DNA of 64,000 nucleotides from Candidatus Latescibacterota bacterium (GCA_965237525.1 CBDEFO010000003.1:224001-288000); one strand, 5' to 3'; shown: positions 33,398 through 63,794, counted from the first letter of the stretch. Translations and numbers: made by a program. Notes: a model not told the origin generated them from the sequence alone.

Positions 33398-34641
33398 GTG
33401 GAGCCGAATTGGAAGGGCAAGACGGTTTTTACGGGTGACAACTTGTATGTTATGCGGGGTATGAATAGCGAGTCTGTTGACTTGATATATCTCGATCCGC
33501 CGTTTAACAGCAACCGGGCGTATGCTGCCCCCATAGGTAGTGAGGCTGCGGGTGCTGCTTTTAAGGATACGTGGACTCTTTCGGATGTTGATCTTGTGGA
33601 GCATAACCGGTTGAAAGAAGAAAATGTCGGTTTGTATACCCTTATGGAGTCTGCGAAACACCTCCATTCTAAGGGTATGTTTTCTTATCTGGTCATGATG
33701 GCGGTTAGGTTGCAAGAGATGCGGCGTATTTTGAAGCCTACGGGTAGTATTTATCTGCATTGCGATCCTACGGCAGATAGCTACTTGCGGTTGGTTATGG
33801 ATGGAATTTTCGGGCATGGGAATTTTCGGAATGAGGTTGTTTGGTGTTATCGTGGTGGTGGTGTTGCTAAATATGATTTTGCCCGAAAACACGACGTAAT
33901 TTTTCGTTATTCCAAGACCAAAAAAGTTGTTTTCAATGTGGATGATGTTAGAATTTCATACTCAAAATCTGTTCTTGAATCATCTACCAGTCGTTACGAC
34001 AAATCTTATAGAGCCAGCAAGGTGTACTCGGGATACAGACCAAACGAGAAAGGCAAACATCCTGAAGATTGGTGGGAAATTCAACCGATTATGCCGTCAT
34101 CAAAGGAGCGTATTGGATACCCGACACAAAAACCGTTAAAAACTGTTGGAGCGTATTATCAAAGCCAGTAGCAACCGGGGCGATGTTGTGTTGGACCCTT
34201 TTTGTGGTTGTGCTATGACTATGGTTGCGGCGGAAGACCTTGGTAGAAATTGGATGGGTATAGATATATCTCCGAAGGCTGTTGAGTTGGTTGTGTCTCG
34301 GATACGGGACCGTCAGGGTCTTTTTAGGGATATAACGCACAGGGACGATATACCGCGTCGGACGGACCTTGGCGAAGAAGTTGAGGGGTAAGGGCAAAGA
34401 CGAATGCAAGAAGACTCTGTATGGTCTCCAGGAAGGATATTGTAACGGTTGTCATGAGCATTTCCAAATCCGTAATTTTCACATGGATCATATTACTCCG
34501 AGGGCTAAGGGTGGTACGGACCATGCCGAGAATTATCAACTGTTATGTGGAGACTGCAACCATAGAAAGGGCACCAAGAGCCAGGCCGAGTTCAAGGCAT
34601 TATTGGCGAAGGAAAAAGGAATCAGTACGTCATGGATATAA
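33398..34641 (+). CDS. DNA methyltransferase (N6/N4, beta-type motif order) fused to C-terminal HNH endonuclease; frameshifts near 34140 and 34373
   Basis: DLIYLDPPFNS, GSIYLHCD, GYPTQKP, VLDPFCG; then CNGC..HMDHITPRAKGG..QLLCGDCNHRKG. Confidence 0.82.
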
Positions 34642-50085: not shown

Positions 50086-50129
50086 GCGGCGCGACCTCAG
50101 CTAACCGATCTTTCTTGTTCTTTTCCCTT

Positions 50130-50160
50130 GCCCCATCACAGCTGTCCGATGGGGCGTTTT
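50130..50160 (+). terminator. Intrinsic terminator after rplS
   Basis: GCCCCATC...GATGGGGC stem followed by TTTT. Confidence 0.65.
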
Positions 50161-50195
50161 ATTTATCCCTCAAAGTGGTGCGACCGCTCCGTGAT

Positions 50196-51827
50196 ATGAA
50201 GAAGATCACAGCTTTCCATATATTCGCGATCGTTCTTACAGTATTCTTCTGCGCCGTAAGATACATCAGATTTCAGGAGCCTATGGGACTTGACCAGGGT
50301 CTCTTTGCCTACTTCGGAAGACATATCCTCACCGGCAGTGTCCCCTACTTAGACATCTGGGACAGCAAACCTCCCGGTATATTCTATATATACTCCATCA
50401 GCTTTGCGCTCCTCGGCGACTCCTTCTTCAGCGTGTATCTTATCGAGACCCTCTTTTTGGCCCTCACGGCCCTTTTGATCTACCTTCTGTGCGCAGAAGT
50501 TTTCGATAAGAAAGTCGCCCTATTTGCCGCGGCCATCTACGTTCTCTTTTCCAACGCTCCTATATTCGACGGATTCTGGTCCACAGCACAGGCTGAGGTC
50601 TTCATGAACTTGCCCATAGTCGCAAGCCTCTACATCCTCACCAAGAACTTAAGGAGATGGCACTTTTTCGCCTCTGGGGTTCTTCTCGGACTGTCAGTGA
50701 TGTTCAAACTTACCGCCCTATTCCTGCTACCCTCTTTTATCCTGTATCTCTACCTGTCCTTCAAAGACAAATCCCCGATTGAACCCCCAATAGATTCAAT
50801 TGGGGGTCGGGATAGGATTCACAGGTACACATATTTCGGCATCGGACTTATCATCCCTCTACCCATCTGTGCCTTCTACTTCTGGATGCAGGGAGCCCTC
50901 GACGATATGATTTACACACTTGTCTCTTACAGCTACCGCTACTCGCAAGCCATAACCCAGGGACAGCCTTTTCTCAAGACTTCCCTTGGACAGTTCATAA
51001 GGTTTGTCATTTTCAACCCCACAGTATCCATTTTATCCCTCGTCGGACTTATATATCTCCTTGTAAAAAGACGTTCTAAAGAAACGTATCTTTTAATATC
51101 CTATCTTGTGCTATCCTTTATTTCGGTCTGGGCGCAAAGACAGTTTGCAGGGTACCACTTCATCGTGCTCTCGCCTCCGCTTGCCGTCATCTGCGGCAGT
51201 GCATGCCCCTTTATATTCAACTGGATAGTCCGAAGCACAAGCTCTATCATCCGCAAAAGATCCTTAGAGACTCTGCTCAGGTCATCTGCAGCTATTATAA
51301 CAGTAGTATTACTAGCCTTTTTTCTTTACACGGAGATGTCCCGTTATTATCGGTACTACAGACCGGACATCTCCTACGCTCGTGGAAGGATATCCCCAAG
51401 GGAATATCTAAAGACTTTCGACACGGGAGCAATATCCTTTCTGAATAACAGCTCTGTCGCTGACTATATAAGAGATAGGACCGATAGTGACGACTATGTC
51501 CTGGTATGGGGATTAGCCCCCGCTATCTATTATCTGTCAGACAGAAAATCTCCCACAAAATACGTCTTCCACCACGTTCTGTTGACCGACGCTCCGCTGT
51601 CCCGGCAACTTGGGGGTCTTGAGGGAAGGAGAAAAGAATTTTTGGAAAAGGTAACCGACAGCAAGCCCCGTTACATCGTCATAGGCATCAACGACAGGAA
51701 CGGCTTTGAGCCGCAGGACTCCGACACTCAGCTTCTCAATTTCAAAGAGTTCAAGGACTATGTCTTTACAAACTACGATAGAGAGAAGAGAATCGGGAAT
51801 TTCATCCTTGTGAGGAGAAAGGAGTAA
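50196..51827 (+). CDS. ArnT/GT39-like integral membrane glycosyltransferase
   Basis: DQGLFAY, PYLDIWDSKPPG, AQAEVF; many TM helices. Confidence 0.82.
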   Translation: MKKITAFHIFAIVLTVFFCAVRYIRFQEPMGLDQGLFAYFGRHILTGSVPYLDIWDSKPPGIFYIYSISFALLGDSFFSVYLIETLFLALTALLIYLLCAEVFDKKVALFAAAIYVLFSNAPIFDGFWSTAQAEVFMNLPIVASLYILTKNLRRWHFFASGVLLGLSVMFKLTALFLLPSFILYLYLSFKDKSPIEPPIDSIGGRDRIHRYTYFGIGLIIPLPICAFYFWMQGALDDMIYTLVSYSYRYSQAITQGQPFLKTSLGQFIRFVIFNPTVSILSLVGLIYLLVKRRSKETYLLISYLVLSFISVWAQRQFAGYHFIVLSPPLAVICGSACPFIFNWIVRSTSSIIRKRSLETLLRSSAAIITVVLLAFFLYTEMSRYYRYYRPDISYARGRISPREYLKTFDTGAISFLNNSSVADYIRDRTDSDDYVLVWGLAPAIYYLSDRKSPTKYVFHHVLLTDAPLSRQLGGLEGRRKEFLEKVTDSKPRYIVIGINDRNGFEPQDSDTQLLNFKEFKDYVFTNYDREKRIGNFILVRRKE

Positions 51828-51998
51828 AGAATCTCTACAGCAACACTTACTTATTATATCTATCGATTTTAATCCTTGCGCTCTAAGATGAAAATATCTA
51901 TCTTTAGTATCGGATTTTGCAATTAAGTACGATTATGCTAACCTGTATCCAACAATTGAGTCTACATCGAACAAATGTGTTACATCTGGAGGTAGTCT

Positions 51999-52538
51999 AT
52001 GCAGTGGAAGGAGCTTGGAATTACGTTGAAGAAGCAGTTGTCCTCGTACATGATGTGGATGTTTGCTAACTTAGGAGGGTTGGCTGTTGCCTATTTGGCT
52101 AATTTCACTATATGGACACTCCACCGTGACTCCGGAAGCTATGCGTATATGCCGAGACCTGATACGTTTTTAATTTCAGGTACTATCTCTTTGGCAGTAG
52201 CTGGAATTCCCTATTTGAGTCTTCCTCGATCCCGTTCAGTTTCGCTCTCCCCTGTACTTTCCCTCTTATGGGTTCCTCTGGTGGCAGCAGTTTACGGGAT
52301 ACTCATCGCTATGGGTGTTAAGCAACCTGTCATCAGCAAAAACGAGATATGGTTTATTGCAATTCTAATAGCGATAGGTTGCTGGTCTTGGTCAACCGTG
52401 ACATGGCTTCATGAACAGGGAATTCGAATGGAAATAGAGGAAGAGCCACAGCCCCCACCGGAACCATCTCAATCACTCAAGGATACGGCTGAAGATCTCC
52501 GTAAAACAAGTGGGACTGGCGATCTGGAGGATATCTAA
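51999..52538 (+). CDS. Hypothetical membrane protein (~4 TM) with acidic/proline-rich tail
   Basis: GGAGG SD; four hydrophobic segments; stop abuts the next ATG. Confidence 0.75.
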   Translation: MQWKELGITLKKQLSSYMMWMFANLGGLAVAYLANFTIWTLHRDSGSYAYMPRPDTFLISGTISLAVAGIPYLSLPRSRSVSLSPVLSLLWVPLVAAVYGILIAMGVKQPVISKNEIWFIAILIAIGCWSWSTVTWLHEQGIRMEIEEEPQPPPEPSQSLKDTAEDLRKTSGTGDLEDI

Positions 52539-53642
52539 ATGGACACAATCCAAATACCGGTGATCGAGGTGCGCCAGAATATTGGAGAACTATATGTCGG
52601 TGCTATGAAAGCCCATGATCTATATGCTATAGCTAAGGTGGATCGCATTAGATTGGAATCCATGAAGATACCGAAGTATGCAGGATTCCAACGCCCTCTT
52701 GTTCAAGATCGGATAAGCGCCATCCGAGATTACCTGGACACACCACGATGTACCTTCCCAAACGCGATTATCCTATCTTTGGATTCGGAGTACATTGAGA
52801 ATTGGGAAGATGTTCAGGGCGGCTCGAATGTGAGTACGTTGAATGTTCGGCGAGAAGAGGGAGCAGCGAAAATCATCGATGGCCAGCACCGTTCTGCAGC
52901 GCTTGATGCTTCTCAACAAGGATTTGAGGTGATCGTATCGATCTTTGTAGATCTTGAAATGGGACGAAGTGCTGAAATCTTTTCTAAAATTAACAGTACG
53001 CAAAAGGCCGTAAATCCCTCTATTGCCTTCCAATTGTTTGGATATGCAGAAGATCGCAGTCCGCAACGCACTGCGCATGAAATAGCAGAGATATTCAATA
53101 CCACCGAAGGATCACCTTTCTATAAGCGTCTTAGGATGCTAGGAACCAAGGATAATTGGTCGATGGGAGGAACTCTTAGTCAATCGACTTTCTGCAAGGA
53201 ACTGATGAGGTTGTACACAAGAGATCCAACACGAGATGAGAACCGTCTTTTACGTAAAGAGAAATTAGACACCTATTCAGATTATCCCTTCCGAGACTGG
53301 TTTATAGAAAGTAATGATCAGAAAATCCTGGAAACAGTATGGAGGTTTTTCGTCCGCATCGCTAATACGTGGCCAGAGCAGTGGTGGGATAAAGGAGGTG
53401 AATCAAACCTTACAAAAACAACAGGGTATGCAGCATTCATACAGATTCTAAGAATATGGCTTTTGAATGGTTCACAAGCTAATCAAGTTCTAGAAGATAA
53501 CGGAGTTGAAGAACTATTTAAGAGAATTAAGGAAAAGTACGAGAGTCCTCAACATCGGTTTGTTAGTAAGAATTACCGTGCCGGTAACGAAGGTGTAGTG
53601 AATCTACGCGACGCCCTTGTTAAAGACCTTAAAGTGAAATAG
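52539..53642 (+). CDS. DGQHR domain protein (DndB/DpdB-related)
   Basis: GFQRPL, FPNAIIL, IIDGQHR, IFSKINSTQKAV. Confidence 0.9.
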   Translation: MDTIQIPVIEVRQNIGELYVGAMKAHDLYAIAKVDRIRLESMKIPKYAGFQRPLVQDRISAIRDYLDTPRCTFPNAIILSLDSEYIENWEDVQGGSNVSTLNVRREEGAAKIIDGQHRSAALDASQQGFEVIVSIFVDLEMGRSAEIFSKINSTQKAVNPSIAFQLFGYAEDRSPQRTAHEIAEIFNTTEGSPFYKRLRMLGTKDNWSMGGTLSQSTFCKELMRLYTRDPTRDENRLLRKEKLDTYSDYPFRDWFIESNDQKILETVWRFFVRIANTWPEQWWDKGGESNLTKTTGYAAFIQILRIWLLNGSQANQVLEDNGVEELFKRIKEKYESPQHRFVSKNYRAGNEGVVNLRDALVKDLKVK

Positions 53643-53648
53643 ATTATA

Positions 53649-54500
53649 ATGTTAAAGCCTTTACTAAAGTGGCCAGGAGGAAAACGCTGGCTTGCTGCGA
53701 AAATTGTGCCTCACCTAGAAGGTACCTTTAAAAGATACATTGAACCTTTTTTTGGAGGGGGTGCGGTTTTGTTTGCACTTGAACCGCCCCGAGGATTGGC
53801 ATCGGATACAAATGGTGATTTAATCGACTGTTACCAGGCGATTAGGAAAGAAGGACACCGCGTACTGTGTGAACTCAACAAACTGCAGTGCATAAAGAGC
53901 GAGTATTACCGCATCCGTGATAGTTGGAACCCCCAGTGTGAGTTCCAACGTGCGTCTCGTCTTATTTACCTTTTGCGACACTCTTGGAATGGACTGTACC
54001 GCGTCAATAAAAAGGGTCGTTTCAATGTGCCATATTGCCCACGTGAGCGAAAGGATAGGCTTACAAGAGAGATGATGACCGGTGTCCAATCAATATTGCA
54101 GCGGGTTAGCTTAGAGTGTCAGGATTTCGAACAAGCTATTGCAAAAGCAGAAAAAGGTGACTTGATATTTGCAGACCCACCTTACTTCGAGAATGGTAAC
54201 ACAAAATTTGGAAATTATAGTTCAATTTCTTTTCAAGAAGAAGATCAAGAGCGTCTTGCAAAAGCCCTTACCACAGCAGAACGTAGAGGCGCCGCTTGGA
54301 TCCTTACCGATGGATGTTTTGAGCAGGTTCGGACCCATTTCTTAGGGCATGATATATTCGTTGTACCTCGTCAGTCTGTCATCGCTGCAGATCCAAAGTA
54401 TCGGAAGAGGATTTCTGAATATGTTGTGCTCTCCAGAGGAAGTGAACTCGGAAAGCTACGCCAATTTCTTGCCGAGAACTATAAACTGGTTTCCAACTGA
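53649..54500 (+). CDS. Dam-family (D12 class) DNA adenine methyltransferase
   Basis: KWPGGK, YIEPFFGGGA, YRVNKKGRFNVP, FADPPY. Confidence 0.92.
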   Translation: MLKPLLKWPGGKRWLAAKIVPHLEGTFKRYIEPFFGGGAVLFALEPPRGLASDTNGDLIDCYQAIRKEGHRVLCELNKLQCIKSEYYRIRDSWNPQCEFQRASRLIYLLRHSWNGLYRVNKKGRFNVPYCPRERKDRLTREMMTGVQSILQRVSLECQDFEQAIAKAEKGDLIFADPPYFENGNTKFGNYSSISFQEEDQERLAKALTTAERRGAAWILTDGCFEQVRTHFLGHDIFVVPRQSVIAADPKYRKRISEYVVLSRGSELGKLRQFLAENYKLVSN

Positions 54501-54642
54501 CCTTTTAGTTGGATAGTGCGTGAGGAGTCAACGAATTTACAATGTTACAAAAGAAGCACGAAAATCCAATCAAAATATTTAAGTTCTGTTATACTTAACT
54601 CAATATCACATTAATTTTATATCGAGAAGGGGGGTATCAAAG

Positions 54643-55326
54643 ATGCAAAAACATCTCATAATCTTGTTGACAGGATGTGTGCTCATACTTTACGGCTGCG
54701 GCGAAGATGGAGGTCCCACCTCCGGAACAAGGAGCGGACAGGTTCTATACCAGGAAAACTTCGATTCATACATAGACGGAACTCTGCCCGATTCCTGGGT
54801 GTGGACCGGCGACCCAACAGGTGGAGGCGCTTTCACTGTTAAAGATAAAGTCTTTAAACATACAGTAGAAGGAGACGTTTACTACTTCTATCAACGGCAG
54901 ACGTTCGGCGACGGGACATATGAGTTCGACGTGGACAGCGATGACACCTCGTGGATCTTTGCCTGGAGGATTACGTCTACAGATCCTTCGGAAGGGCAGG
55001 CGCTCCACCTCCAGTATAATATTCCGGTCGGTAGCAACAACCTGATTTTCTCCGTATCGGATTGGTCCACACTGGAGCAACATCCGCACGGTCAATTTAT
55101 GTGGCACAACGCATCTTCCGATACCCTGCTGGCAGCTGAATTGTCCCTGTCCTCAGGCCCGCATTACATAAAAATCGAGGACGATGGAAAAGCGGCTACT
55201 TTCCGCGTTGACGATGTGACCGTATTGGGGCACCCTCACGAACTGGATTCTGAGGGATTTATCGGACTCGGGAGTCAAAAAGCCTTAGGCATCGAATATG
55301 ACAATATTTCTGTAAAGGCCCTCTGA
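54643..55326 (+). CDS. Putative lipoprotein with beta-sandwich (ConA-like) domain
   Basis: Lipobox LYGC; YQENFD, GFIGL, YDNISV. Confidence 0.65.
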   Translation: MQKHLIILLTGCVLILYGCGEDGGPTSGTRSGQVLYQENFDSYIDGTLPDSWVWTGDPTGGGAFTVKDKVFKHTVEGDVYYFYQRQTFGDGTYEFDVDSDDTSWIFAWRITSTDPSEGQALHLQYNIPVGSNNLIFSVSDWSTLEQHPHGQFMWHNASSDTLLAAELSLSSGPHYIKIEDDGKAATFRVDDVTVLGHPHELDSEGFIGLGSQKALGIEYDNISVKAL

Positions 55327-55393
55327 TTCTCAAGTAAATTCGAGCACACTATTATCGCTAACTAAGTAGACAGGTTACCGCCTCTCCCCCCTT

Positions 55394-55492
55394 GAGATTG
55401 CTTGGCTGCCCCCGATTAAATCGGGGGTCGCAACGACAGTATCCGTCTTTGGCTTTCAGTCATTGCGAGGGGAAAAGCCCCGAAGCAATCTC
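55394..55492. repeat. Inverted pair of GAGATTGCTT...GCAAYGAC REP-like elements
   Basis: GAGATTGCTT..CCCCCGATTAAATCGGGGG..TCGCAACGAC and GTCATTGCGA..GAAGCAATCTC. Confidence 0.7.
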
Positions 55493-55575
55493 CGTTAGAC
55501 TGCCTCTCCCTCTATGTTGTCTACTATTTTGGATCTCTATAATTCATCTCCAGATTATTTTGACCTCATACTTAG

Positions 55576-55738
55576 CCTGGATTATTCATAAATTCTGATG
55601 GACCTGTGATAAGCTACTGTCAATACTGGGCTTTTAATTTTCGGTCTCATTTGAAAAACCAGCGGATTCTCCAGTCAACAACCTGTTGTATAACAGCGAC
55701 TTATGTAACATTCGAGGCAAGTTTGTGAATAATCCGGG
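55576..55738. mobile_element. MITE-like element (163 bp) with IS1380-like ends
   Basis: TIR CCYGGATTATTCAYAAA; TTAG duplicated at 55572-55575 and 55739-55742; no ORF. Confidence 0.7.
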
Positions 55739-55783
55739 TTAGCAAACCGATAAAGAGTCCTCACATATCGGAAATATACGAAG

Positions 55784-59769: not shown

Positions 59770-62700
59770 CTATCCTGTCCTGCCAAAGTTATCCAGAAAG
59801 ATCACAAAGTCGGATAGACCGATCTCTTCATCATTATCCAAATCAAATGTGGTATCCCAATCCGGTGAACTGGTCGTTGCCCCAAATGCATCCAGAAAAA
59901 GAACAAAATCGGAGAGACCTACTTCATTATCCCCGTTGAAATCTCCTACAAGGCTAGGGACGACAACAGGGATATCAGAGAGATTCAACAACACTGATAC
60001 AGTAGTGCCTCTGATGAACTCGCCCGGATTAGCCACAGCCAGGTCATTATCTCCATCCCCATCTAAATCGGCACTGAAAACTGATGAGGCAGCATCCCCA
60101 GCGTCATAGTCCAACTTGTCTGCAAATGTCCCATCTCCATTATTCAACAACACTGATACATTATCGCTGCCAAAATTAGCCACAGCTAAGTCATTATCTC
60201 CATCCCTATCCAAATCTGCACTGAAGACTGAACGTGGCCTACTCCCAGCACCATAGTCCACCTTAGGTGCAAATGTACCATCTCCATTATTCAGCAACAC
60301 TGATACAGTAGTGCCTCTGATGAACTCGCCCGGATTAGCCACAGCCAGGTCATTATCTCCATCTCCATCTAAATCGGCAATGAATACTGATGAGGCAGCA
60401 TCCCCAGCGTCATAGTCCAACTTGTCTGCAAATGTCCCATCTCCATTATTCAACAACACTGATACATTATCGCTGCCAAAATTAGCCACAGCTAAGTCAT
60501 TATCTCCATCCCTATCCAAATCTGCACTGAAGACTGAACGTGGCCTACTCCCAGCACCATAGTCCACCTTAGGTGCAAATGGTACCATCCCCCTTGTTCA
60601 ACAACACTGACATACCATTCCGATTAGCCACAACTAAGTCATTATCTCCATCTTCATCTAAATCCACACTGAAGACTGAACGTGGCCTACTCCCAGCACC
60701 ATGGTCCACCTTAGGTGCAAATGTCCCATCTCCATTATTCAACAATACTGACACAGTACCGTTGAATACAGTATTAGCCACAGCCAAGTCATTATCTCCA
60801 TCCCCATCTAAATCGGCACTGAAAACTGATGTGGCACTAATCCCAGCGTCATAGTCCACCTGAGGTGCAAATGTTCCGTCTCCATTATTTAACAACACTG
60901 ACACAGTACCAAGAAAGCCACTTGAATTAGCCACAGCCAAATCATTATCTCCATCCCCATCTAAATCTGCACTGAATACTGAACCGGGGGAATCCCCAGT
61001 GGCATAGTCAGTCTTAGGTCCGAAAAGGGCAGGAACGAAAGTAAATCCGTTCTCAAGTGTGCCTGCCAGACCATCTGGATTTGTGACTGTCACATCCAAA
61101 GTACCAGCAGGATGAGCAGGAATCACAGCAGCAATGATATTGGTGGCAACTACGACTACATCTGTGGCTGCAATATTGCCGAAAGTAACAGTTGCTCCTC
61201 TCTGGAAAACGCTCCCTTTTATTGTCACAGGCGTACCGATCAATTCCAAGCCTGAAGTGGGATTAATAGATGTCACAGCAGGAGGACCAGGAGGAGGCGT
61301 CACAGACAGATTCAACAACACTGATACAGTACCGTTGGCCACAAAATTAGCCACAGCCAGGTCATTATCACCATCCCCATCTAAATCTGCACTGAAAACT
61401 GACCAGGGAGCATTCCCAGTGGCATAGCCCACCTTGTCTGTAAATGTACCATCTCCATTATTCATCAACACTGATACATTAGCGCCTCCAGCAGTAGCCG
61501 CTACTATGTCATTATCTGCATCCCCATCTAAATCTGCAATGAATACTGACAGGGGAATCTCTCCAACACGATAGTCGACTTTAGGTGCAAATGGTCCCAT
61601 CTCCATTATTCAACAACACTGACACAGTATTACTGTTCAAATTAGCCGTAGCTAAGTCATTATCACCATCACCATCCAAATCTTCAATAAATACTGAACG
61701 GGGAAACTCCCCAACACTATAGTCCATCTTAGTTGCGAATGTACCATCTCCATTATTCAACAACACTGACACATTGTCACCGTTCTGATTAGCCACAGCT
61801 AGGTGATTATCTCCATCTCCATCTAAATCCGCACTGAATACTGAAATGGCAGCACTCCCAGCTTGATAGTGCACTTTAGGTGCAAATGTCCCATCTCCAT
61901 TATTCAAGAGTACTGACACTTGAGACGTAACTAGGTCATTGTCTCCATCCCCATCTAAATCCGCACTGAATACAGAAAAACCCCCAGCGGGATAGTCCAT
62001 CTTAGGTGCAAATGTACCATCCCCATTATTCATCAACACTGATACACTGAAATCGCAACACGATCCACTATTAGTCACAGCCATATCATTATCTCCATCT
62101 CCATCTAAATCTGCAATGAAGACTGATGAGGGTTCATTCTCAACACTGTAGTCCACCTTAGGTGCAAATGTTCCATCTCCTTTATTTAGCAACACTGACA
62201 CATTATCGCTTTCATAATTTGCCACAGCTAGGTCATAATCTCCATCCCCATCTACATCTGCACCGAAAACTGATCCGGGACGATTCCCAGCGGCATAGTC
62301 AGCTCTGAGTCCGAAAAGGGCAGGAACGAAAGTAAACCCGTTCTCACGTATGCCTGCCTGACCGTCGGGATTTGTAACTGTCACGTCCACAATACCAACA
62401 GGATGAGCAGGAGTCACCGCGGTAATGGTAGTGGAGTTCACTACGGCTATATTTGTGGCTACGCTACTGCCAAAAGTAACAGTCGCTCCTCTCTGGAAAT
62501 TGCTCCCTTTTATTGTCACACTCACAGGAGTACCGACTAATTCCGCGTCGGAAGTGGGATTAACAGATGTCACAACTGGAGGAGGAGGAACAATAACCTC
62601 AAATCCGTTCTCAAGTGTGTCTGCCTGACCGTCAGGATTTGTAACTATCACGTCCACAGTACCGACAGGATGGGTAGGAGTACCAAGGGTAATGGTACCC

Positions 62701-63794
62701 AGAAGCCCTACAGCTACATTTGTGACTGAGCTATCTCCGAAAGTAACAGTCGCTCCACTTTGGAAATTGCTCCCTTTTATCGTCACAGGTGTACCGCCTA
62801 ATTCTGAGCCAAAAGTGGGACTAATAGATGTGACAATCAAAGGAGGTGTCACATTAGAGAGATTCAACAACACTGATACATTGCGCCCAGCCACAGCTAA
62901 GTCATTATCCCCATCCCCATCTAAATCTGCACTGAAGAGTGAACTACCCCGAGGGCTATAGTCCACCTTAGGTGCGAATGTCCCATCTCCATTATTCAAT
63001 AGTACTGACACTCCAGACGTAACTAAGTCATTATCTCCATCCCCATCTAAATCCACACTGAAGAGTGAACTACCCCCAGCGGGATAGTCCACCTTAGGTG
63101 CAAATGTACCATCCCCATTATTCATCAACACTGATACGTTACCGCCTGCAACCACAGCTAAGCCATTATCTCCATCCCCATCTAAATCTGCACTATCTAA
63201 ATCTGGACTGAACAATGAACCGGGACCACTCCCAGCAGCATAGTCCACCTTAGGTGCAAATGTACCATCCCCATTGTTCAACAACACTGTTACAGTAAGA
63301 GTACCTGAGAAGCCCTCATTAGCCACAGCCAAGTCATTATCTCCATCACCATCCAAATCTGCAATAAATACTGAATAGGGTCTACTCCCAGCGGCATATT
63401 CCACCTTGGGTGCAAATGTCCCATCTCCATTATTTAACAGCACTGATACAGTAGTGCCGCTCTCGAAGTACCAATTAGCCACAGTCAGGTCATTATCTGC
63501 ATCTCCATCTAAATCTGCAATGAATACTGATTGGGGACCATTCCCAGCAGCATAGTCCACCTTAGCTGCAAATGTACCATCTCCATTATTCAATAACACT
63601 GATACATTATCACTCTCTGCGTTAGCCACAGCTAAGTCATTATCTCCATCTCCATCTAAATCTGCACTGAAAACTGAACGGGGACTAAACCCAACGGCAT
63701 AGTGAGTTGGGAGTCCGAAAAGGTCCTGTGCATAGGCAGGCGCGTTCAAAGCGACTAACAGGATCAGAGCAGTATATAAGATCGCACATCTCAT
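59770..63794 (-). CDS. Large secreted FG-GAP repeat + IPT/TIG protein with dockerin-like tail; two frameshifts (~61593, ~60581)
   Basis: ORFs 61581-63794, 60569-61606 and 59770-60588 join into one repeat protein; tail GDFNGDNEVGLSDFVLFLDAFG. Confidence 0.85.

Follow-up and report, generated by a model that had tools for sequence, protein, structure and literature searches.

An accessory and apparently unnamed cassette linking a membrane protein, a DGQHR protein and a Dam-family methylase in Candidatus Latescibacterota

The genome of a Candidatus Latescibacterota bacterium (GCA_965237525.1) carries three adjoining genes, encoding a small membrane protein, a DGQHR protein and an adenine methylase, that together make up a real, mobile, recurring, modification-linked and apparently unnamed cassette. 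A role in defence is probable. Our preferred reading, to which we assign a probability of roughly 0.45, is nuclease-free, methylation-keyed immunity, in which, by analogy, a ParB-like NTPase clamp would read adenine methylation and would trigger the membrane protein on unmarked DNA. The stretch of DNA analyzed, referred to as the window, comprises 64,000 nt (CBDEFO010000003.1:224001-288000) and contains the following features of the cassette.

51914..54620, + strand: accessory cassette of three genes, delimited by alignment of its flanks to the same-genus genome G001
51999..52538, + strand: gene 1, unclassified 179-aa membrane protein, proposed effector (hydropathy, model, alignment)
52539..53642, + strand: gene 2, 367-aa DGQHR protein, proposed DNA-sliding sensor (TIGR03187 above cut-off, model)
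52878..52892, + strand: DGQHR motif, D114-R118, invariant in 47/47 close homologues
53649..54500, + strand: gene 3, 283-aa D12/Dam-family N6-adenine DNA methyltransferase (TIGR00571 above cut-off)
54174..54185, + strand: DPPY catalytic motif of the methylase, D176-Y179 (motif in sequence)

Cassette layout and accessory status

A preceding sequence-only reading of the locus had proposed three co-oriented and tightly coupled genes between unrelated neighbors, and this description holds. Three intact open reading frames (179, 367 and 283 aa) lie on the + strand, the first two meeting in a TAA/ATG junction (52538/52539) and the third following after a 6-nt gap (53643-53648). Upstream lies a PMT_2-type glycosyltransferase gene and downstream an unclassified 227-aa gene. 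The gene labels were equally sound: gene 1 is a membrane protein with three to four hydrophobic segments, and genes 2 and 3 passed the DGQHR and Dam models, respectively. The same reading had recognized no nuclease and no dnd or dpd genes, and searches of the neighbors and of the genome agree with this. PADLOC and Pfam matched no nuclease, and hence no cognate restriction endonuclease beside the methylase, in either cassette neighbor, the cassette stopping directly after the methylase. Searches of the genome (96.6% complete) by tblastn at E 1e-5 gave no match for the DpnII, BglII and AlwI nucleases of related loci or for DndB, DndC, DndD, DndE and DndH, and DpdA was likewise without a match.

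In G001, 35 unrelated bases stand in place of window positions 51914-54620, and the flanks of this 2.7-kb block align up to position 51913 and from position 54621 at 89-95%. Because the block missing from G001 is exactly the three cassette genes, these constitute one accessory unit that is gained or lost jointly, more than would be expected by chance. The cassette is accessory, as this joint absence shows, and it is modification-linked, as the methylase and phosphorothioation genes that recur beside the membrane-DGQHR pair show. The GC3 of the cassette genes (0.40-0.46 vs. 0.52-0.58 in the neighbors) favors gain rather than loss as judged from composition, bearing in mind that a single relative cannot polarize the event. 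Among 40 relatives searched, none yielded a close homologue, and three have weak DGQHR matches. In an independent run, a single contig spans positions 51788-54717 at a depth of 6.6, compared with 11.9 upstream; the lower depth over the block fits a mixture of strains with and without it, short of proof. The cassette has no terminal repeats, and promoter and terminator matches within it are no commoner than in shuffled sequences.

Several other features of the window were recorded. The upstream glycosyltransferase gene (50115-51827) contains, in frame, a 41-nt palindromic repeat (50771-50811) that has 82 blastn matches in the genome and copies in G001, and that resembles a REP-type element tolerated in coding sequence. 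An intergenic repeat mosaic before gatB (55385-55580) has 104 blastn matches in the genome, and G001 has about 40 bp at the site corresponding to 55342-55745. A weak N6_N4 methyltransferase-like match lies 18 kb upstream of the cassette (about 34025-34330). On the - strand, three tandem ORFs at 59770-63794 are rich in short repeated motifs and share a segment at their ends; they may be fragments of a single long gene or reflect a repeat in the assembly.

The encoded proteins

Gene 2 is the only DGQHR gene of the genome. Its product scores 180 bits against the TIGR03187 DGQHR model (cut-off 58.85). The best full-length family match is TIGR04172 (score 186, cut-off 450, E 9e-55). The score against the DpdB equivalog is 105 (cut-off 300; PADLOC DpdB E 9e-31), and the DndB equivalog gave no match. 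Residues Q51-R52, D114-R118 and F148-N152 (FxxxN) are invariant in 47/47 close homologues. The structural model (pLDDT 90) has an N-terminal ParB/Srx NTPase fold at residues about 11-158, and a structure search against 48,161 chains returned ParB/Srx-fold proteins in all top five rows; superposition with PadC gave a Z score of 8.4 (rmsd 2.9, 101 aligned). On the strength of the model, the N-terminal domain has a ParB-type nucleotide-binding fold. The C-terminal half is modeled as helical. It retrieved nothing above Z 4.7 in the whole-model search and contains no nuclease motif conserved over 22 aligned homologues, and the protein has no HNH/DUF1524 Pfam match.

Two assignments for gene 2 were rejected: identity with DndI, which is a DUF262 plus HNH protein, and a HEPN motif at R173..H180, because the histidine is not kept in distant homologues. 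The residue preceding the QR pair is aromatic (Y/F) in 14/15 close-clade proteins and isoleucine in 9/9 proteins of a methylase-first clade; by motif position, the aromatic residue matches the sensing tyrosine of DndI. An enrichment of GATC inside DGQHR genes (126 observed vs. 92 expected from base composition, unevenly spread over 24 genes) was set aside and left unused because codon composition was uncontrolled.

The membrane protein shows three hydrophobic segments at a strict hydropathy threshold and four at a looser one. Its model (pLDDT 87, from 21 sequences) consists of four long helices flanked by a short N-terminal and a C-terminal helix, and the alignment reveals a conserved C-terminal tail, WLHEQG..P..P..L...LP. 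Pfam, PADLOC and NCBIfam returned no match, no known pore or effector was matched by sequence, and an Atlas feature search yielded unnamed clusters only. At the level of fold, Foldseek found nothing at E 0.001. A profile run against PDB sequences gave 0 matches. KwaA has four helices; the Foldseek-ranked chains, which cover the comparison with a KwaA-like fold, comprise generic helical bundles only (best Z 7.8).

Gene 3 scores 207 bits against the TIGR00571 Dam model (cut-off 114.85), and its closest solved relative is M.DpnII (DpnM, 2dpm; E 9e-41). Motif I, DPPY (motif IV) and the hairpin GLYRVN..FNVP are all kept relative to M.DpnII, and from its sequence gene 3 is an intact D12/Dam-family N6-adenine methyltransferase. 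A hairpin of this type presumably reads GATC, and gene 3 is accordingly predicted to mark GATC-type sites. The genome encodes one other strong D12 methylase, which differs in its hairpin and is accompanied by a partner gene of its own. Genome-wide, CTAG falls far below expectation (observed/expected 0.27), GATC stands at 0.85 and many 6-bp palindromes are low.

Recurrence in genomes, plasmids and viral contigs

The three genes also occur together elsewhere, namely in close-clade loci, in an even draw of genomes and in viral contigs. The close clade comprises about 50 proteins at 43-67% identity. Scans yielded 6 genome and 27 metagenome loci, of which 19 fall in the close clade and 17 are distinct (L004 = L017, L014 = L015). 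The DGQHR gene is immediately preceded by a match to the membrane-protein profile in 16/16 distinct close-clade loci with upstream DNA, a set that includes partial matches at contig edges (L011, L018) and one split over two frames (L013), and that leaves out L010, where the contig edge is too near. A D12 methylase adjoins the pair in eight of the 17 loci (L002, L005, L010, L011, L012, L018, L019, L020) and is next but one in two (L006, L008); four further loci have another amino-methylase at most three genes away (L003, L004, L009, L014), so that 14/17 carry some amino-methylase within three genes. These counts rest on scans of 40 and 64 selected neighbor proteins. No methylase was found on the short contig of L013, nor in L007 and L016, where the contig stops within the DGQHR gene.

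The scans identified many close-clade loci as defense islands with DpnII, BglII-like, AlwI, HNH, type IIG or helicase genes. At two loci (L006:2099-5308 and L008:2013-5115), a D12 methylase and a 760-aa protein converge on the membrane-DGQHR pair. This protein appears to have a central DGQHR domain and, by eye, an N-terminal nuclease-like motif.

A broader profile was applied to even draws of 301, 401, 401 and 401 genomes (1,504) from the phyla to which four of the hit genomes belong. It yielded 22 matches, 5 of them already known and 17 new, and a membrane gene lies directly upstream in 13 of the 17; the other four proteins are shorter and branch outside in the tree. Stand-alone Dam-membrane-DGQHR trios with no adjoining nuclease account for five of the 13, and the neighbors identified for such trios include frr, adenosine deaminase, thioesterase, aldehyde dehydrogenase and integrase genes. 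A further five reside in dnd-type loci. Of the remaining three, one is preceded by a different gene with a weak methylase-like match, and two lack both a methylase and a dnd-type setting.

On plasmids, the four best-ranked matches opened (7/70 records) all have the membrane-DGQHR pair, which occurs with Dam in Roseateles, with a BglII-type system in Acinetobacter and pRiA4, and alone in B. thuringiensis. The window methylase matched 2,593 plasmid records, headed by the methylase of the Roseateles Dam-membrane-DGQHR cassette; rank two belongs to an ordinary AlwI system and rank three to another kind of DGQHR trio. In viral contigs, the close-clade search found no match, whereas the broader profile gave 33, of which 10 were examined. 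The membrane gene is present in 7/7 of the strongest, and five of these seven, several of the set being near-duplicates, have an adjoining Dam-type gene, either upstream or convergent. The trio thus exists in three arrangements, with the methylase upstream, downstream or convergent, and from gene order it has therefore likely re-formed more than once in evolution.

Other DGQHR contexts were also encountered. Four distant DGQHR proteins (L028, L030, L031, L097) follow a membrane gene with one to two helices near radical-SAM-like genes, an arrangement that from its gene content may be a further uncharacterized module. Two loci are devoid of a membrane gene: in Pseudomonas phage PfAC19 (L059:3959-5938), a DGQHR gene and a gene for an unclassified 324-aa protein lie by the Pf phage repressor, and on a Zymomonas plasmid (L135:1139-4801), a DGQHR gene is grouped with an unclassified 440-aa protein and Dam.

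Phylogeny and exchange of partners

Trees were built with FastTree, the DGQHR tree from 47 proteins. It resolves two neighboring groups, one phosphorothioate-linked with 8 rows and a support of 99, the other methylase-linked with 24 rows and a support of 92. The latter divides into the clade of the window (15 rows, support 100) and the methylase-first clade (9 rows, support 100). The sister clade, TIGR04172, is located in phosphorothioate loci and likewise has a four-helix partner. Across the three clades, the membrane partners are alike in size and four-helix layout; homology among them is statistically unsupported (hhalign E about 0.02, probability about 2%).

The methylases of the window, L002, L005 and L011 cluster with a support of 100, the gene order being common to all. 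Unlike these methylases, their DGQHR partners (window, L002, L005, L011) show no common grouping. Elsewhere, the sub-clades (L086, L087) and (L055, (L088, L096)) are common to the methylase and DGQHR trees. The partner enzymes include D12, N6_N4, MT-A70, EcoRI-like and phosphorothioation types. Since the membrane gene is constant while partner enzymes and gene orders vary, including in the sister clade, these comparisons indicate that the membrane-DGQHR pair is the fixed unit and that the modification enzyme is exchangeable. The initial proposal of a three-gene unit stands in part: the trio does recur, yet its invariant portion is the pair, to which a methylase is a usual but exchangeable addition.

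Proposed mechanism and alternative explanations

In the preferred, methylation-keyed reading, the methylase would mark host GATC-type sites, and the DGQHR protein, through its ParB fold, would act as a sliding reader of the methyl mark on DNA. By analogy with DpdB and ParB, the clamp may cycle in an NTP-driven manner, and by analogy with DndI, its NTPase activity could be tuned by the modification, which would also release it from self DNA. On unmarked DNA, the DGQHR protein would switch on the four-helix membrane protein, presumably through direct contact, and this putatively toxic protein would damage the membrane or arrest the cell. The trigger would be unmethylated invader DNA, or host methylation lost during infection. 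We regard the DGQHR protein as the sensor and the membrane protein as the output because the DGQHR protein is nuclease-free and always follows the membrane gene. Some observations speak against this reading. Copies of the pair with no adjoining methylase exist, and the candidate sensing aromatic residue is limited to the close clade. The membrane protein resembles no known pore or effector in sequence, the window-type methylases group together whereas their DGQHR partners do not, and the membrane proteins of the three clades lack statistically supported homology. Methylases are common anyway in defense islands, where many close-clade loci sit. The reading of one fixed mark is also strained because the partner enzymes differ chemically.

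Among the alternatives, a Kiwa-like, non-lethal defense is unlikely. In this scheme, the membrane protein would anchor the DGQHR clamp, which would trap incoming unmethylated DNA and stall its replication, and the membrane protein may also sense injection. The gene logic is alike, since Kiwa in the source passages combines a membrane protein with a DNA-binding partner that stalls phage DNA (10.1101/2023.02.26.530102). The scheme is consistent with a C-terminal half of the DGQHR protein without a nuclease motif, and the membrane protein could offer a docking site in its conserved tail. However, PADLOC matches neither KwaA nor KwaB at the cassette, and Kiwa as described in those passages involves no modification enzyme (10.1101/2023.02.26.530102).

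We also consider it unlikely that membrane protein and DGQHR protein are a self-sufficient two-gene defense, acting for example by nucleotide sensing or depletion, with methylases as mere defense-island neighbors. The pair does occur with no adjoining methylase in four loci (L057, L094, L102, L103), partners vary, and DndB-like ParB proteins have been suggested, in the source passages, to degrade nucleotides (PMC10853773). On the other hand, stand-alone trios with no other defense gene adjoining recur (window, L055, L086, L087, L088, L095, L096), a methylase persists in all three orientations, and its tree agrees in part with that of the DGQHR proteins.

Selfish addiction is improbable as the sole explanation. 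The methylase would then be the antidote, and loss of the cassette would leave unmethylated DNA that triggers the membrane toxin, with no benefit against phage. The patchy distribution, with no close homologue in the 40 relatives, and carriage on plasmids and viral contigs are compatible with such a role; frequent placement in larger defense islands and dnd loci fits an anti-invader role, and addiction and defense are not mutually exclusive.

Least plausible, and very unlikely, is a DGQHR protein that helps or regulates the methylase while the membrane protein localizes or modulates that enzyme, given that Dam-type methylases work alone and that the constant partner of the DGQHR gene is the membrane gene rather than the methylase. 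Its model would be DpdB, which assists DpdA, and DndB, which represses the dnd operon; both share the domain according to the source passages (PMC10164549; 10.1101/2025.10.10.680097), but the DGQHR protein is far under the DpdB cut-off and has no DndB-equivalog match.

Returning to methylation-keyed immunity, we tentatively propose a generalization that we hold with less confidence: the membrane protein and ParB-fold clamp may be a widespread plug-in that reads the self-mark of the host and has been re-paired with different marks. If true, the mark would be adenine methylation here and phosphorothioate in the TIGR04172 clade, and the Dam version would represent a nuclease-free, restriction-modification-like system acting through the membrane. 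The cassette would discriminate self from non-self with no nuclease and would give a role to a class of apparently orphan Dam methylases.

Comparison with known systems

The sequence-only reading could not match the cassette to a named system, and neither PADLOC 2.0 models nor a full-text literature search supplied one. The literature search, which covered full texts, found no description of a membrane plus DGQHR module with or without a methylase.

The nearest relative is TIGR04172, defined as a dnd satellite, ‘DNA phosphorothioation-associated DGQHR protein 1’, of uncharacterized function (PMC3226654, in the part available). It constitutes the neighboring clade, and the gene directly upstream of its members is a 3-4-helix membrane gene. 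Gene 2 differs in reaching 186 of the required 450. The family is defined by adjoining dnd genes, which are absent from this genome, where the partner is an adenine methylase; a membrane partner goes without mention in the available source text (PMC3226654). The cassette would also give a role to this satellite gene, flagged in 2011 and still uncharacterized in the literature found.

With DndI and SspE the cassette has in common a ParB-fold NTPase, a DGQ(Q/H)R motif and the pairing with a modification module, as far as the source passages go (PMC11662687). There, the ATPase of DndI is stimulated by the host mark, which frees DndI from self DNA (PMC11662687). DndI and SspE are phosphorothioate-sensing and combine a DUF262 ParB-fold NTPase with an HNH nickase, whereas gene 2 is much shorter (367 aa) and has no HNH/DUF1524 domain as in GmrSD/SspE/DndI-type fusions. 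The mark of the cassette is predicted to be m6A rather than phosphorothioate, and its proposed effector is a separate membrane protein. While SspE and DndI nick DNA, the cassette would thus join this sensor fold to a membrane protein, with methylation taking the place of sulfur.

DpdB and DndB resemble gene 2 in having a DGQHR domain and a helical C-terminal half. DpdB is described as a dimeric, DNA-stimulated ATPase modeled with a DNA-sized tunnel (PMC10164549, in part), and a DndB-like protein as binding ATP and GTP (10.1101/2025.10.10.680097, in part). Gene 2 differs in falling below the DpdB cut-off and in belonging to a genome devoid of dpdA and dndCDE, and the available source text for these proteins gives them no membrane partner. 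The passages of three other papers that discuss DndB and DGQHR do so likewise with no membrane partner (PMC10853773, PMC4619093, PMC3632139).

Kiwa, as far as its source passages describe it, is similar in that a small membrane protein is followed by a soluble DNA-associated partner (10.1101/2023.02.26.530102). In the cassette, this partner is ParB-fold rather than DUF4868 and a methylase is attached, and neither gene gave a PADLOC or Pfam match to KwaA or KwaB (DUF4868). The resemblance to DpnII-type restriction-modification or an orphan Dam lies in gene 3, which is nearest to M.DpnII among solved structures; here, by contrast, the cassette contains no cognate endonuclease, tblastn found none in the genome, and the methylase is coupled to the membrane-DGQHR pair. 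Overall, the cassette resembles modification-sensing ParB-fold defense while lying outside Dnd, Dpd, SspE/DndI, type II restriction-modification and Kiwa.
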